From the UHGV virus genome UHGV-0152950: DNA of 18,833 nucleotides; one strand, written 5' to 3'. The notes under the pieces are model-generated. The model did not search any database. It had not been told where the DNA came from and saw nothing but the letters and a program-made list of their open reading frames with translations. A program made the translations under genes and the position numbers. The DNA comes from a virus. Numbering within the stretch: position 1 is the stretch's first letter; each line of letters starts with the position of its first letter. Shown one piece after another: positions 1 to 7,009 of the stretch.

Positions 1-330
1 GCAACCAGAAAACCGACGACCGTAGGTGATATCCTTCTGTACGAATACCTGGAGCCGTTAGAGCTGAAGATCAACGAGTTAGCAGAAATACTTCATGTTC
101 ATCGTAACACCGTAAGTGCTCTTGTTAATAATAATCGTAAGCTAACGATGGATATGGCATATCGCCTGGCAAAAGCATTCGATACTTCTGTAGATTTTTG
201 GATTAATCTTCAGACCGCAGTAGATCTGTGGGAAGTCGAAAATGATATGCGCGTTCAGGAAGAGTTAAGTCGTATCAATACTGCTGAAAAATTTATTTCT
301 CAGCGGAACCTGAATAAAAAAGCAGCCTGA
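1..330 (+). CDS. higA: HigA-family antitoxin (HTH, addiction module antidote protein), 5'-truncated by window edge
   Basis: Frame 1 is open from base 1 to the TAA at 328-330. Translation ...TVGDILLYEYLEPLELKINELAEILHVHRNTVSALVNNNRKLTMDMAYRLAKAFDTSVDFWINLQ matches the HigA-family HTH signature from memory. A hairpin terminator follows. Confidence 0.8.
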   Translation, partial: ATRKPTTVGDILLYEYLEPLELKINELAEILHVHRNTVSALVNNNRKLTMDMAYRLAKAFDTSVDFWINLQTAVDLWEVENDMRVQEELSRINTAEKFISQRNLNKKAA

Positions 331-348
331 TATAGTAAAACACATACA

Positions 349-379
349 AAAAGCCCACTTAGCAAGTGGGCTTTCCTTT
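349..379 (+). terminator. Rho-independent terminator-like hairpin after higA
   Basis: Stem gcccact (353-359) / agtgggc (365-371), then T-rich tttccttt. An A-run precedes it, so it could act in both directions. Confidence 0.55.
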
Positions 380-386
380 GTAATTA

Positions 387-587
387 ATGAACATTAAACC
401 TATCCGTACAGAACAAGATTATGAGGCCGCACTGCGTGCGGTCGAACCGATGTTCGATAACGAACCGGAAATGAATACTCCGGAAGGTGATTTCTTTGAG
501 GTTATGAGTCTTCTCATTGAGGAGTACGAGAAGAAACATTACCCAATTCAGCCACCATCACCTGTTGAATCTTTTAACTATCCATAA
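387..587 (+). CDS. Small protein resembling the N-terminal (non-HTH) domain of HigA-type antitoxins; possibly a gene remnant
   Basis: 66-aa ORF MNIKPIRTEQDYEAALRAVEPMFDNEPE...EEYEKKHYPI. No clear Shine-Dalgarno upstream of ATG 387 and no HTH domain follows; ends with tandem stops TAATAA. Confidence 0.4.
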   Translation: MNIKPIRTEQDYEAALRAVEPMFDNEPEMNTPEGDFFEVMSLLIEEYEKKHYPIQPPSPVESFNYP

Positions 588-608
588 TAAAAGTAATCAG
601 GATAAGCT

Positions 609-1337
609 ATGATGTCAGAAAAAGTTACAGATAATCCGTCTATAAATGAAACAGAACTAAAATCATTTTCTGAAATAATAAAAGATAAAATATTTAACAA
701 GGTTTTTGCATATGTTGTCATTTCTTTTCTAATTTTTAACTGGAAGGATATTTTAATTATATTAAAGTCAAAGGATGACATCCTATATACATTATCTATT
801 GTTTTTGTTGGTGGTAATGTCCCGTTCTTTGATAATTGGATTGTATCCCCGTGGGTTTATCACGTTGTAATCCCATTTGTTTATGGAGTATTTGCATCTG
901 TGTTAGCTCCTATTCTCACACTGAAGATATCTAAGCTAACAAGTAAATTATACACTGAAATAAGATATTTAGATGAAGCTGCTGATTATGATAAAAGAAT
1001 AGAATTGCAAAGAAAGAAAACAAAGTTAAATCAAGCAACCAATGACGCTAAATATTCAAAACAAATCTTAGATGAAAATGAAAATAAACTTAATGACCTG
1101 GCTAAGAAACAGCGAGAAATTTGCGGCGCGATAAAACTATTGCATACTGATGTTGGCAGTATTATTGAGCTATATAAAAATAAGGGGGTTAGCATTGAAT
1201 CTCCGCAAGATTTATGTGATTTTATAGTCGCTATAAAAAGCACATCATTCTATAATGATGACAAGCATTTTAATAAATTGGTGTCTGATATTTCCAGTTT
1301 GTTTGATAATACTGGAATTGATCTTTCAAAAAAATGA
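609..1337 (+). CDS. Hypothetical membrane protein, AT-rich; N-terminal hydrophobic helices plus Lys/Glu-rich coiled-coil-like C-terminus
   Basis: 242-aa ORF with SD AGGA 6 nt before ATG 609. Hydrophobic segments VFAYVVISFLIFNW, LYTLSIVFVGGNV, VYHVVIPFVYGVFASVLAPILTL. G+C is visibly far lower than flanks (roughly 30% by eye). Terminator hairpins flank it on both sides. Confidence 0.75.
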   Translation: MMSEKVTDNPSINETELKSFSEIIKDKIFNKVFAYVVISFLIFNWKDILIILKSKDDILYTLSIVFVGGNVPFFDNWIVSPWVYHVVIPFVYGVFASVLAPILTLKISKLTSKLYTEIRYLDEAADYDKRIELQRKKTKLNQATNDAKYSKQILDENENKLNDLAKKQREICGAIKLLHTDVGSIIELYKNKGVSIESPQDLCDFIVAIKSTSFYNDDKHFNKLVSDISSLFDNTGIDLSKK

Positions 1338-1342
1338 AAGCC

Positions 1343-1381
1343 CAGCATAAACTACTAGGCTATGTGTGGTTTATGCTTTTT
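1343..1381. terminator. Bidirectional terminator-like hairpin between convergent genes
   Basis: Inverted repeat agcataaac ... gtttatgct followed by TTTTTT on plus and a T-run on minus. It overlaps the stop of the minus CDS ending at 1371. Confidence 0.5.
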
Positions 1382-2564
1382 TCACGTACTCTATAAACAT
1401 CTTCTCAGCCTGTTCTTGTGGCGTTCCAGCCATGACAAGCGCATCAATGAACGCCTGCTTCTTCAGTGCGAACTGATCGGCAAGGCGTTGCTGAAGTTCC
1501 TTATTTTTCTGTTTCTCACGTTGCAAGGCCGCTTCTTTTGCAGCCGCCCGTTTTTTCTGTGCGTCTGACAACTTTCTGGCCCTGGTCAATTGGTCACGTA
1601 GCTTGTCGATCTTGCCGTTGTCCTTTGCCAGTTTTGTACTTAAAGCGGCCTGGCGCTTCTGATAGAGCCTCCATTCGCGCTTGGCGGCGTCAACGTTCGT
1701 TTTACTGCTACGATTGCGATTAAACTCCTTCTCGTCTTCTTTTGAGAAGTGTTTGGTTGTACGGCGCCGATCGTCACCAAATGCAATTTGCGTTGCGGCC
1801 TTTTGTAACGCACGAGCAATACTCATTTGCCAACTGGCGGACTGTAACCGCGTCATTGAGTGGATCACGTGTTTACAGGCGACGCCTTGTAGCTTAGGGT
1901 TACGAACTTTTGGATAGGCGTATTCTTTTGGCGGGGCCAGGGCAAAGTTACCCGCAGTAGCGATGTAACGATACCAGTATTGATGACGACCACAGTCACA
2001 ATCGAAAGACACCCGCCCAGCGCACAGTGATTTAGTGATTTTCAGAGCTGATTTATCGTCTTCTGCGATGTCATCGACCATCTGATCCCATTCTTCAAAG
2101 CGTATCCGGACGATATGGTGCTGGTGGACGGATATATCCGATGCTTCTACGCGGATATTAATCACGTTGTGGCGAAGAGATACGGGTGTAGCTCTTTTGA
2201 TACCAGATCCGTCATCCACGGCGTTATTTGCACGCTTAATATCGATTGCCTGGCTGGATGCCACCAGCTGGGCGTATGTGATGCCAGCCGTCTTGCTGTC
2301 ATATTTTTCGCGTGTTTTACTCCGTAGCTTTTCGAAACCTTTCAGGTCGTCTCGCGTGAAGAACGTGCCGCCTTTTTTCTTCCCTAACTTGAGAATATCT
2401 TCGGCGGATTTGTTCCTCAGTCTACCTGGCGTCAGCGTCCGGTGAGCTTGTCGGCGCTTACGGGTTTGTTCTTTCCTGATAAGGTCGAATAAACGCGTGA
2501 AGTCCTTAGAGGACAGGCCGTCAGTGATATAGCGCCCGTCCTGGTTTTTCAGGAAATCAGGCAT
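1371..2564 (-). CDS. Hypothetical protein with basic N-terminus, SWIM-like Cys/His motif (CxC...CxH) and long Lys/Arg/Gln-rich coiled-coil C-terminus
   Basis: 397-aa ORF. ATG at 2564 overlaps the stop of the upstream gene by 8 nt, suggesting translational coupling. Motif SFDCDCGRHQYWYRY...GVACKHVIH. No family recognised by eye. Confidence 0.8.
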   Translation of the reverse strand: MPDFLKNQDGRYITDGLSSKDFTRLFDLIRKEQTRKRRQAHRTLTPGRLRNKSAEDILKLGKKKGGTFFTRDDLKGFEKLRSKTREKYDSKTAGITYAQLVASSQAIDIKRANNAVDDGSGIKRATPVSLRHNVINIRVEASDISVHQHHIVRIRFEEWDQMVDDIAEDDKSALKITKSLCAGRVSFDCDCGRHQYWYRYIATAGNFALAPPKEYAYPKVRNPKLQGVACKHVIHSMTRLQSASWQMSIARALQKAATQIAFGDDRRRTTKHFSKEDEKEFNRNRSSKTNVDAAKREWRLYQKRQAALSTKLAKDNGKIDKLRDQLTRARKLSDAQKKRAAAKEAALQREKQKNKELQQRLADQFALKKQAFIDALVMAGTPQEQAEKMFIEYVKKA

Positions 2565-2886
2565 TTTCTATCTCCGGTTCCGCGCTCGCGTAATCACGGA
2601 TCTTGTTCCTCAGCCATGCCACATCAGGAAGAGTTAACGTGGTCCCGGCGGGCATTTCTTCCATTTCTGACTCATGGCCCACCAGCACCCGGAATACCCA
2701 GCGCAAATCTGCATTGCCATACGCCCTGTAGGCTGCAAGGTCTGAACGATATACTTCATCAATCTTTATCGTGTACTGGAAATTATCAGAGTGATACTCC
2801 GATACCCGCTTAATCATTTCCTGGTGAAACAGCGCACGAAAAATATCGTCTTCAATGTACCTGTCGTCGAGTCTGCTATAGCCCAT
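2557..2886 (-). CDS. Hypothetical protein, first gene of a two-gene operon
   Basis: 109-aa ORF with ATG at 2886 and SD-like GAGAGG upstream. Overlaps the downstream 397-aa gene. Confidence 0.7.
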   Translation of the reverse strand: MGYSRLDDRYIEDDIFRALFHQEMIKRVSEYHSDNFQYTIKIDEVYRSDLAAYRAYGNADLRWVFRVLVGHESEMEEMPAGTTLTLPDVAWLRNKIRDYASAEPEIENA

Positions 2887-3079
2887 AACAAAGCCTCTCA
2901 GTCATAACCTGGGGGAAACTGTATGCAGGGTGTGAAATGTGAGAAACAGACAGGCCACCAGTTCAGGGGGATGTGGTTCATAAATCCCCTCACTGGTGAC
3001 AAGTGACTTTCATTAATCTTTGTGCGGGGGCCAGCTTCATTTGCTGGCATTAGATTAAAAATTAAACGGAGTGAATGAC

Positions 3080-3214
3080 ATGGATGTTATATTCGAATTA
3101 TTAATGCTAATTGATCTGTTTATGAACGCTTCATTGACCACGCAAATACTGGCGTCAATATTTTTGTTACTCTTCTACCTGGTATTGAGGGAGTTAACAA
3201 AGCTACTAATGTGA
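3080..3214 (+). CDS. Putative small hydrophobic peptide (44 aa), candidate membrane peptide
   Basis: Not in the ORF track (under 60 aa). SD ACGGAG about 8 nt before ATG 3080. Product MDVIFELLMLIDLFMNASLTTQILASIFLLLFYLVLRELTKLLM. AT-rich; its stop abuts the stop of the convergent minus CDS. Confidence 0.3.
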   Translation: MDVIFELLMLIDLFMNASLTTQILASIFLLLFYLVLRELTKLLM

Positions 3215-3868
3215 TCAAAGTATCACGGTATCTTCATCAACTTCTTTCCCAGCCAGTGACTTTGGCTGGGAGGTGCCTGCTTCAACTTTTTCATGCCCAA
3301 TAATGGACAGGAACGAAGCGAGTATGCCTGTTTTTTGCTCTTTCTCGACTGCGCCGGTCATCTGCTCTACGTAATCCGCACTGGCAACGTTGTGGTATAC
3401 GGTCGCGTAGCAACACAGGATCATAAGAATATGTTCCGGCCTGATGTCCTGCCAGTTCACCCGGTAGACTTCTTCTCCGTTACCATTGTATTCGGTATCA
3501 ACGATAGAGTCGGGGATTTCGAAAGCACCTTTGTTATTTTGCGGCAGGGATAATAGTTTCTGGAGTTTTAACTCTCTGTATCTTTCCATCCCGACGATGA
3601 TTGCTGCTCTACCATCGGCATGACGGGTCTTGAGAGTCACCTGACTTGCTCCGGTGCCAGCGGAGATCGTTGGCGTAATTTCGTCTACCAGTACCTTAAA
3701 TTTGCTTTTCCGCAGGGCTGCTATAGCTGGAGGAATTTTTTGCTTTTGCTCCAATGCTGACGCGGGAAGGGGTTTTACTTCGTTAATAATGAGAGCACCG
3801 TCTTTCAGTATTGCAGTGAGCATTTGAGGCTTGCTGGTGGTCAGGCTGAATATTGCGATCTTTTCCAT
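3215..3868 (-). CDS. Hypothetical protein
   Basis: Strong SD GGAGGAAGG before the internal ATG at 3868 (MEKIAIFSLTTSK...). The longer ORF to 3910 lacks an SD. 217 aa, no recognised motifs. Confidence 0.7.
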   Translation of the reverse strand: MEKIAIFSLTTSKPQMLTAILKDGALIINEVKPLPASALEQKQKIPPAIAALRKSKFKVLVDEITPTISAGTGASQVTLKTRHADGRAAIIVGMERYRELKLQKLLSLPQNNKGAFEIPDSIVDTEYNGNGEEVYRVNWQDIRPEHILMILCCYATVYHNVASADYVEQMTGAVEKEQKTGILASFLSIIGHEKVEAGTSQPKSLAGKEVDEDTVIL

Positions 3869-6697: not shown

Positions 6698-6754
6698 AAT
6701 GGCAGCCTCCTTTTGCTAATTTAAGGAGCTACCGCGTGAGGTTCCAATCTCAAT

Positions 6755-6835
6755 GGCGGTAGCACTGACTGGGTTGGAACTACCGGCGCAAAAGGGAACC
6801 GGCCTGCCTTTCGGCAGCCCAGCCAGCACTACCAT
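6755..6835 (-). ncRNA. Candidate C4-like antisense RNA (boundaries uncertain)
   Basis: Minus-strand hairpins GGCUGCC-GAAA-GGCAGGCC and GGUAG-(loop UUCCAACCCAGUCAGUG)-CUACC. The loop GUUCCAA is complementary to UUGGAAC upstream (about 6930) and just before the icd SD (about 6745). The RNA could instead be the 6883-6960 hairpin plus terminator. Confidence 0.3.
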
Positions 6836-6882
6836 TGATCTCTGAGCTAAACGCTACGTATGGCTGTGCGATGGCATGACAC

Positions 6883-6904
6883 AAAAAAAGACGCTTTCGG
6901 CGTC
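6883..6904 (-). terminator. Rho-independent terminator (minus strand)
   Basis: Hairpin gacgc tttcg gcgtc (6890-6904) followed on minus by a U7 run (plus A7 at 6883-6889). Confidence 0.5.
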
Positions 6905-7009
6905 TGTGTCGCCTTTTGCATTATCCGGGGTTCCAATCCCGGCACCCGTTTTTCTAAGGTGCCGTAGAAATATACCCCACGATAATGCCAGGGCGCAACA
7001 GTCAGTATT

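Follow-up and report, generated by a model that had tools for sequence, protein, structure and literature searches.

The question raised by this locus is what a strongly AT-rich gene is doing inside a block of phage tail genes, on the opposite strand and next to the remains of a toxin-antitoxin module. The gene occupies positions 609..1337 on the plus strand of the window (the whole stretch of 18,833 nucleotides of virus genome UHGV-0152950 that was analysed). It starts with ATG, encodes a predicted membrane-anchored coiled-coil protein of 242 aa, and has a Shine-Dalgarno-like AGGA at 598..601 (+), read from the sequence, 7 nt ahead of the start codon. It belongs to the D6 orf73 family (phrog_8191), and its counterpart orf73 in Escherichia phage D6 carried the name "hypothetical protein" in D6, in the RefSeq plasmids and in every cluster member read. 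The frame was judged to be a real gene under purifying selection because dN/dS was 0.13-0.78 within the allele of the window and 0.25 between the two commonest alleles, and because all copies (51/51) among 5,426 complete E. coli genomes were full length, all of them on plasmids of about 75-216 kb.

Positions 300-1450 matched D6 with 80.5% nucleotide identity and matched 112 plasmids of E. coli, Salmonella and Shigella, mostly of about 75-95 kb, with up to 99.8% identity, while the remainder of the window matched D6 and partly also P1. These matches, along with the C4 antisense RNA of the immI region, identified the window by sequence as a piece of a D6-like, P1-related phage-plasmid. The C4 RNA (76.7 bits) was located at 6752-6839 (-) and an isrK Hfq-binding RNA (62.5 bits) at 6884-6962 (-), and together they corresponded to the immI (c4-icd-ant) region expected for P1/D6-like elements; the window contained no tRNA, and the gene at 609-1337 and its close surroundings matched no Rfam family. 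One D6-like plasmid, NZ_CP100729.1 (L002), was typed by MOB-suite as conjugative (MOBP relaxase, MPF_T) and the other 110 matches as 'non-mobilizable', and this conjugative typing may reflect a hybrid or a typing artefact.

The tail/baseplate genes 26-25-7-24-6-5 form a single block in P1, with a gap of 3 nt between 25 and 7, whereas in D6-like elements the homologues of P1 genes 7 and 25 were separated by an opposite-strand cassette of about 2.1 kb containing higB (PF05015), higA (TIGR02607), orf72 and orf73. The right-hand boundary of the cassette was the tail gene at 1371..2564 (-), the P1 gene 25 homologue (phrog_1722, E = 1.6e-196), with 98% identity to D6 orf74 and 57% to P1 gp25. The orf73 gene was absent from P1 and from the other P1 relatives in the phage collection. 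Compared with D6, identity was about 100% to the left of 555, 55-80% within 555..1440, and 96-100% beyond 1440, and given these sharp breakpoints the orf73-type gene and the 3' part of orf72 were exchanged as one unit. Both the gap in P1 and the swap breakpoints bore out the horizontal acquisition proposed in the original prediction. Inserted between genes adjacent in P1, deviant in composition, provided with its own terminator and placed opposite to the late operon, the gene resembled phage morons of the Hendrix type. It differed in that moron hotspots usually hold unrelated cargo genes, whereas the orf73 locus held a series of homologous but very divergent alleles. Between the homologues of gene 26 and mat, some D6-like elements had about 1 kb of additional inserted DNA (~8427-8657 in L033 and ~9190-9402 in L042, equivalent to ~2886-3215 in the window), which contained another HigA-like gene with 30% identity to the higA of the window, so that a second variable spot lies near the first.

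The gene had a G+C content of 29.5% (GC3 23%); the window as a whole had 47.2%, and the adjacent tail gene 49.5%. Among all 729-bp segments of the window (mean 47.3%, sd 4.2), 609-1337 had the lowest value, about 4 sd under the mean, and no segment of this size under 38% was found outside 1-1660. The drop to roughly 30% that had been estimated by eye was therefore confirmed by the windowed calculation, but the upstream flank had a G+C of 41-42% instead of the supposed 50%. Many database copies of the gene (protein clusters P0001 and P0004) were 'partial' proteins, varied in length, that lay where contigs of about 55 kb ended, and therefore draft assemblies often break inside the genes of this family; the extreme AT content, through coverage drop-out, is a likely cause.

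The gene ended in an intrinsic terminator at 1344..1382 (+), which consisted of a 12-bp stem (1344-1355/1366-1377) followed by T6, with a dG of -18.1 kcal/mol and z = -3.6, and which overlapped the stop codon of the opposite-strand tail gene 25. An alternative hairpin with a T-run toward the minus strand, at the end of gene 25 (1339..1361, -), overlapped this terminator. The two hairpins within 1339-1382 thus formed a bidirectional terminator between the gene and tail gene 25, which was found in the same place in L032, L033 and L034. The changes in the minus-facing stem between alleles, read from the sequences, were paired (AGCCTAGC/GCTAGGCT versus AGCCTGG/CCAGGCT), which suggests that this stem is functional. 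On the upstream side, a G+C-rich hairpin lay at 350..374 between higA and the next ORF (dG -17.9 on the plus and -19.6 on the minus strand; z = -5.3 and -4.3). It resembled a terminator on either strand, the minus strand having the better T-tract, and it preceded the 66-aa ORF at 387-587 and not directly the gene at 609-1337; folding detected nothing terminator-like between 587 and 609. The proposal that terminators insulate the gene on both sides consequently held for the downstream side, whereas the upstream insulation was only loose in the window. In most other alleles insulation on both sides did hold: all alleles ended in a hairpin homologous to that of the window, and those with an intact orf72 had a hairpin and T-run between orf72 and the orf73 gene as well. 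A promoter consensus scan gave no plus-strand site in 132-736, and a possible extended -10 element, TGATATAGT, read from the sequence only, was located at 328-336, ahead of the 350-374 hairpin. Late transcripts entering from genes 26-25 would encounter two terminator-like hairpins on the minus strand (348-376 and 1339-1361) and the antisense cassette before gene 7, which in P1 follows directly after gene 25; the D6-like genes 7-24-6-5 might have a separate late promoter.

The 242-aa protein matched phrog_8191, a family of unknown function, over its full length (residues 1-242 versus positions 1-242 of the 242-position profile, E = 1.8e-122), and its N-terminal part gave weaker matches to phrog_13369, phrog_22645 and phrog_4780, all likewise of unknown function. 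There was no Pfam match at E ≤ 0.1, SieB being among the Pfam families, nothing meaningful in NCBIfam, nothing in a PDB sequence search, and no match in PADLOC-DB v2 at E ≤ 1. When 31 family members were scanned against Pfam, none matched at E ≤ 0.01 and only coiled-coil noise was seen; five other family members gave nothing meaningful in PADLOC, one of them showing LmuB/JetC coiled-coil noise. The expectation that the protein has no recognised family was thereby upheld, the PHROGs families being of unknown function. The relationship to SieB and Abi proteins suggested by its architecture was not upheld, since Pfam, PHROGs and PADLOC gave none, and homology to SieB was rejected, with hhalign of the family profile against lambda SieB returning a probability of 0.2%. 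No sequence or fold similarity to a known defence, Sie or Abi protein was detected. A word-indexed protein search recovered only close relatives; the wider family became visible through an exhaustive HMMER search over 1.84 billion representatives, which gave 41 matches at E ≤ 0.001, 18 at E ≤ 1e-10 and 8 at E ≤ 1e-30. The loci of the relatives were collected with the nine closest sequences. In the literature on D6-like prophages, phage-plasmid defence and PD-lambda-2, no mention of an orf73-family gene, its allele series or its synteny with HigBA was found. The family is undescribed, the gene being already in databases as a hypothetical protein and an unnamed PHROG.

The protein contained two strong hydrophobic segments (31-53 and 81-106) and a short one (58-69), followed by a region (107-192) in which 37% of the residues are charged and which was predicted to be a single long helix, with a heptad register consistent over about 128-190 (P ~0.01-0.02 versus shuffles). 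Of the three hydrophobic helices and coiled-coil C-terminal part described in the original prediction, two were thus strong segments and the third a short one, and the charged heptad helix was found as well. An AlphaFold2 model built with 31 sequences had a mean pLDDT of 82 (with 2 sequences the pLDDT was 51 and the model unusable). In this model, an amphipathic helix (12-28), a kinked helix (31-43/45-53) and a short helix (58-65) were followed by a continuous helix of about 110 residues (81-192) and a small helical domain (199-234), so that two helices were predicted to span the membrane. In the alignment of 31 full-length members, N44 and P89 were invariant and S39 and P101 near-invariant, all of them within the two hydrophobic helices, and W45 was invariant among close relatives. 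The Lys/Arg counts favoured an N-in/C-in topology, although the positive-inside call was modest, and the product is probably an inner-membrane protein with both ends in the cytoplasm.

The alleles of the gene diverged strongly within nearly identical surroundings. In elements from IMG/VR and PLSDB, the flanking proteins gp24, gp7, HigB, HigA, orf72, gp25, gp26 and Mat mostly showed 96-100% identity to those of D6, whereas the orf73 proteins encoded in these backbones were 35-67% identical to the window protein and to each other. At least nine allele classes were present in such backbones (the window type, D6, L033, L034, L037, L038, L040, L042 and L050), all of them AT-rich (29-35% G+C versus 46-51%). 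The divergence was uneven along the protein. The mean pairwise identity of the alleles was 55% in the membrane module (residues 24-122; 678..974, +), which comprises the helices 31-53, 58-65 and the one starting at 81, but 21% in the charged long helix or coiled coil (residues 123-192; 975..1184, +) and 30% in the small helical C-terminal domain (residues 193-242; 1185..1334, +). A conserved membrane module combined with a variable stalk and C-terminal domain is the pattern that would be expected of a constant effector with a variable specificity part. The allele series and its domain-wise variation are new findings, and they mark a gene that has repeatedly been swapped among nearly identical phage-plasmids. 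Two alleles, L039 and L044, were broken, and with the truncated copies in Klebsiella described below they show that the gene is dispensable.

As the original prediction had stated, a higA antitoxin gene lies nearby: its 3' part occupied 1..330 (+) and matched NCBIfam antidote_HigA TIGR02607 (E = 7e-30) and Pfam HTH_3. Its PF05015 higB partner lay just left of the window, and the two genes carry the annotation HigB/HigA in both D6 and plasmid NZ_CP100729. Between higA and the gene lay another HigA-type ORF, which was truncated. This ORF of 66 aa (387..587, +), which PGAP calls a pseudogene 'missing C-terminus', was the remnant of a K-12-type HigA; it retained the N-terminal domain and had lost the HTH, and it matched positions 1-65 of 402 of PADLOC PD-Lambda-2_B (E = 2.5e-16) as well as phrog_10398/phrog_1373. 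It equalled D6 orf72 (119 aa) up to about residue 55 and then diverged to its stop codon, and this remnant form was the commonest state of the locus in the plasmid collection. Full-length D6 orf72, with the N-terminal domain and the HTH, matched PD-Lambda-2_B over positions 1-119 (E = 4e-43). In L038, L040, L041, L044, L045 and E. coli p95_MLI121, the PF05015/TIGR02607 pair was missing and a PF09907 HigB preceded orf72, matching PD-Lambda-2_A over its full length (E = 2.6e-42). Judged from this gene order and the resemblance of the pair to PD-Lambda-2 A and B, orf72 is the cognate antitoxin of the PF09907 HigB. The PF05015 HigB of the D6-type elements gave no PD-Lambda-2_A match, an A-like HigB being present only in related cassettes such as that of L038.

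A second cassette type, in which HigB has 103 aa and HigA 139 aa, occurred in the more divergent phage-plasmid L043 and in the Enterobacter plasmid pJBIWA008_2; it was also present in 54 large Klebsiella IncFIB plasmids, whose third gene was truncated and often lay beside IS903B. In L047 (6153-7432) and L051, both Klebsiella IncFIB plasmids, a HigB-HigA pair 99% identical to that of the Enterobacter phage-plasmid was followed by a truncated family gene, often adjoined by IS903B or ISKpn26. These pairs are evidence that the triad moves between phage-plasmids and ordinary plasmids. Between the two cassette types the identity was 26% for HigB, 28% for HigA and about 40% for the third protein, and because these values are so low the HigB-HigA-X gene order, where X is the orf73-family gene, is old. 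Within a cassette type, HigB and HigA were 99-100% identical and the third gene 37-95%. In the lineage of D6 and the window the PF09907 higB was replaced by another higBA pair, and in the window the orphaned higA decayed while the third gene stayed intact. The toxin-antitoxin link thus proved stronger than had been claimed, the triad recurring across different replicons, and the place of the X gene as third member of a HigB(PF09907)-HigA triad is a new finding. The 242-aa protein itself gave no HigB, RelE or HTH match in Pfam or NCBIfam and no match to any PD-Lambda-2 profile in PADLOC, which makes it a neighbour and not a member of the toxin-antitoxin modules.

More distant homologues, with 20-24% identity, lacked a HigBA neighbour. 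In E. coli, Citrobacter and metagenomes, the four of them whose context was looked up (P0042, P0048, P0053 and P0056) lay at the margins of prophages or small islands, and all four were convergent with, and 3-14 nt from, a small serine recombinase gene (154-190 aa). A solitary copy without an adjoining HigBA was found in one Enterobacter chromosome. Small serine recombinases were reported in a 2026 study to be genetically linked to anti-phage defence genes (PMC13552941). The distant members resemble the RADS cargo genes of that study (PMC13552941) in lying directly beside such recombinase genes at prophage or island edges, but the convergent orientation means that they are not co-transcribed, and the copy in the window had no recombinase neighbour.

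What could such a protein do? The explanation that we prefer, tentatively and at somewhat less than an even chance, is that the gene encodes a phage-exclusion factor of the Sie or Abi kind expressed in the lysogen. The gene would be an autonomous accessory gene, or 'moron', of a D6-like phage-plasmid, antisense to the late tail operon that it splits, and would presumably be expressed in the lysogen. Its product would be an inner-membrane protein consisting of the conserved membrane module, a long cytoplasmic coiled-coil stalk and the small C-terminal helical domain. The variable cytoplasmic part might determine the invader or partner to be recognised, while the action itself, through permeabilising the membrane or blocking DNA entry, might come from the conserved membrane part. 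Several lines of evidence argue for this explanation: the AT-rich, opposite-strand insertion between genes that abut in P1, with its own terminator and a further one upstream in the alleles with an intact orf72; the nine or more alleles, 35-67% identical, between flanking genes of 96-100% identity; the conservation of the membrane module (55%) and not of the coiled coil (21%) or C-domain (30%); purifying selection (dN/dS ~0.25) with 51/51 intact copies; and the Lys/Arg counts favouring N-in/C-in. The HigB and HigA of the triad also resemble A and the N-terminal part of B of PD-lambda-2, an experimentally shown defence system (PMC9519451), and the distant homologues adjoin the small serine recombinases reported as markers of defence genes (PMC13552941). 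On the other side, the protein resembles no known defence, Sie or Abi protein in sequence or fold, the promoter scan of 132-736 was blank on the plus strand, and in the window the gene directly follows a pseudogene, so that its expression in the lysogen is assumed. Moreover, the gene is dispensable (broken in L039 and L044, truncated in Klebsiella), D6-like elements may share this context simply by common descent, and the evidence from hypervariability and neighbourhood is circumstantial and would agree as well with a different conflict function or with immunity to a toxin that acts on membranes.

The proximity to HigBA raises the main alternative, that the protein is a working third component of a tripartite toxin-antitoxin system, a membrane tether, sensor or effector dependent on HigB and HigA, of which the copy in the window would be a leftover. 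The conserved HigB(PF09907)-HigA-X order in two cassette types with HigB and HigA only 26-28% and X about 40% identical, found in E. coli and Enterobacter phage-plasmids and the 54 Klebsiella IncFIB plasmids, is what such a system would produce, and HigBA-like three-part defence systems such as PD-lambda-2 do exist (PMC9519451). We nevertheless regard it as unlikely, since the gene was retained after the loss of its cognate HigB and HigA: the PF09907 higB is absent in D6 and the window and the orf72-type higA of the window is cut to 66 aa, yet the gene is intact in 51/51 copies and under purifying selection. A terminator separates higA from the gene in most alleles, the distant relatives and the Enterobacter chromosomal copy have no HigBA neighbours, and where X shows 37-67% identity HigB and HigA show 99-100%, a contrast that speaks against tight co-evolution of the proteins with each other. 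The position inside the tail/baseplate cluster, and membrane helices joined to a coiled coil as in spanins and some holin regulators, would also suit a role in the cycle of the phage-plasmid itself, for example in lysis timing (holin/antiholin-like), DNA entry, tail assembly or membrane attachment of the prophage. Such a role seems clearly improbable for a gene that is missing in phages with functional virions, namely P1 and its other relatives in the phage collection, that has a foreign base composition on the strand opposite to the late operon, that is broken in some elements, and that has homologues on non-phage IncF plasmids and alone in a chromosome. Holins are small membrane proteins (~70-150 aa) encoded in the lysis cassette; at 242 aa the protein exceeds the size of a typical holin, its gene is located among tail genes outside the lysis cassette, and the protein has a cytoplasmic helix of about 110 residues and gave no holin match in Pfam or PHROGs. 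Equally doubtful is a lysogenic-conversion factor unrelated to phages, such as an envelope modulator or a protein that confers immunity to a contact-dependent toxin or to a bacteriocin acting on the membrane. Immunity to pore-forming toxins is typically conferred by polymorphic inner-membrane proteins and the gene varies strongly between alleles, but no toxin gene accompanied it in any context examined, and the variable part is predicted to be cytoplasmic and not in the membrane. Least credible of all is a pore-loop ion channel, with a helix, a short re-entrant helix, a second helix and a cytoplasmic bundle as in KcsA/MthK. The five best Foldseek PDB matches of the model were K+/cation channel pore domains with a similar helix order, but a significant fold match together with a conserved selectivity-filter signature was not obtained, and the K+-channel-like topology was rejected as unsupported.

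In its architecture the protein loosely resembles membrane exclusion proteins of the SieA/SieB type. SieA is a prophage-expressed inner-membrane superinfection-exclusion protein (PMC10883804), and SieB of lambda/P22 and SieA of P22 are, like the gene studied here, single prophage-borne accessory genes among or next to essential phage genes, which encode small inner-membrane proteins with a cytoplasmic tail. They share no detectable homology with the 242-aa protein, which in the model also has a C-terminal domain of its own beyond a helix of about 110 residues. PD-lambda-2 (Vassallo et al. 2022, PMC9519451), for which defence was demonstrated by experiment, comprises a HigB-like A, a HigA-peptidase B and C. 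It is likewise a three-gene arrangement on mobile elements, and the upstream genes of L038 and L050 matched A over its full length and B over 1-119. The peptidase domain of B and component C are however absent from the triad, whose third gene encodes an unrelated membrane protein, and in the window A is missing and 66 residues of the B-like gene are left. The tripartite toxin-antitoxin-chaperone systems CmdTAC and HigBAC, found in variable parts of temperate phage genomes, likewise have a conserved third gene behind a HigBA-type pair, but their third gene encodes a SecB-like soluble chaperone, whereas here it encodes a membrane coiled-coil protein that was kept after the loss of HigB and HigA.

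E. coli and Salmonella from clinics and livestock commonly carry phage-plasmids of the P1/D6 group, which spread resistance genes; of the complete E. coli genomes, about 1% contain this one allele, that of the window. To learn what governs how these elements compete with other phages, it makes sense to start from a single gene in which elements that are otherwise the same differ strongly. The family, for which neither sequence nor fold gave a described relative, is small enough for easy cloning and offers a natural set of alleles for domain swaps, and its links to HigBA and to small serine recombinases are two independent genomic hints at a function in conflict. If the exclusion explanation is true, the family would be new among the membrane defence or exclusion systems that consist of a single gene, and it would exemplify toxin-antitoxin cassettes in which a third gene evolves fast. 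More speculatively, and in our judgement with a low probability, these proteins could represent a new class of polymorphic membrane-anchored sensor-effectors of mobile elements, in which the two-helix module would damage or gate the membrane and the diversifying cytoplasmic module would recognise invading phages or plasmids; they would have begun as the third gene of HigBA-derived tripartite defence cassettes and be able to work alone. In that case, the allele series of the D6-like elements would be a balanced polymorphism deciding which related elements exclude each other.
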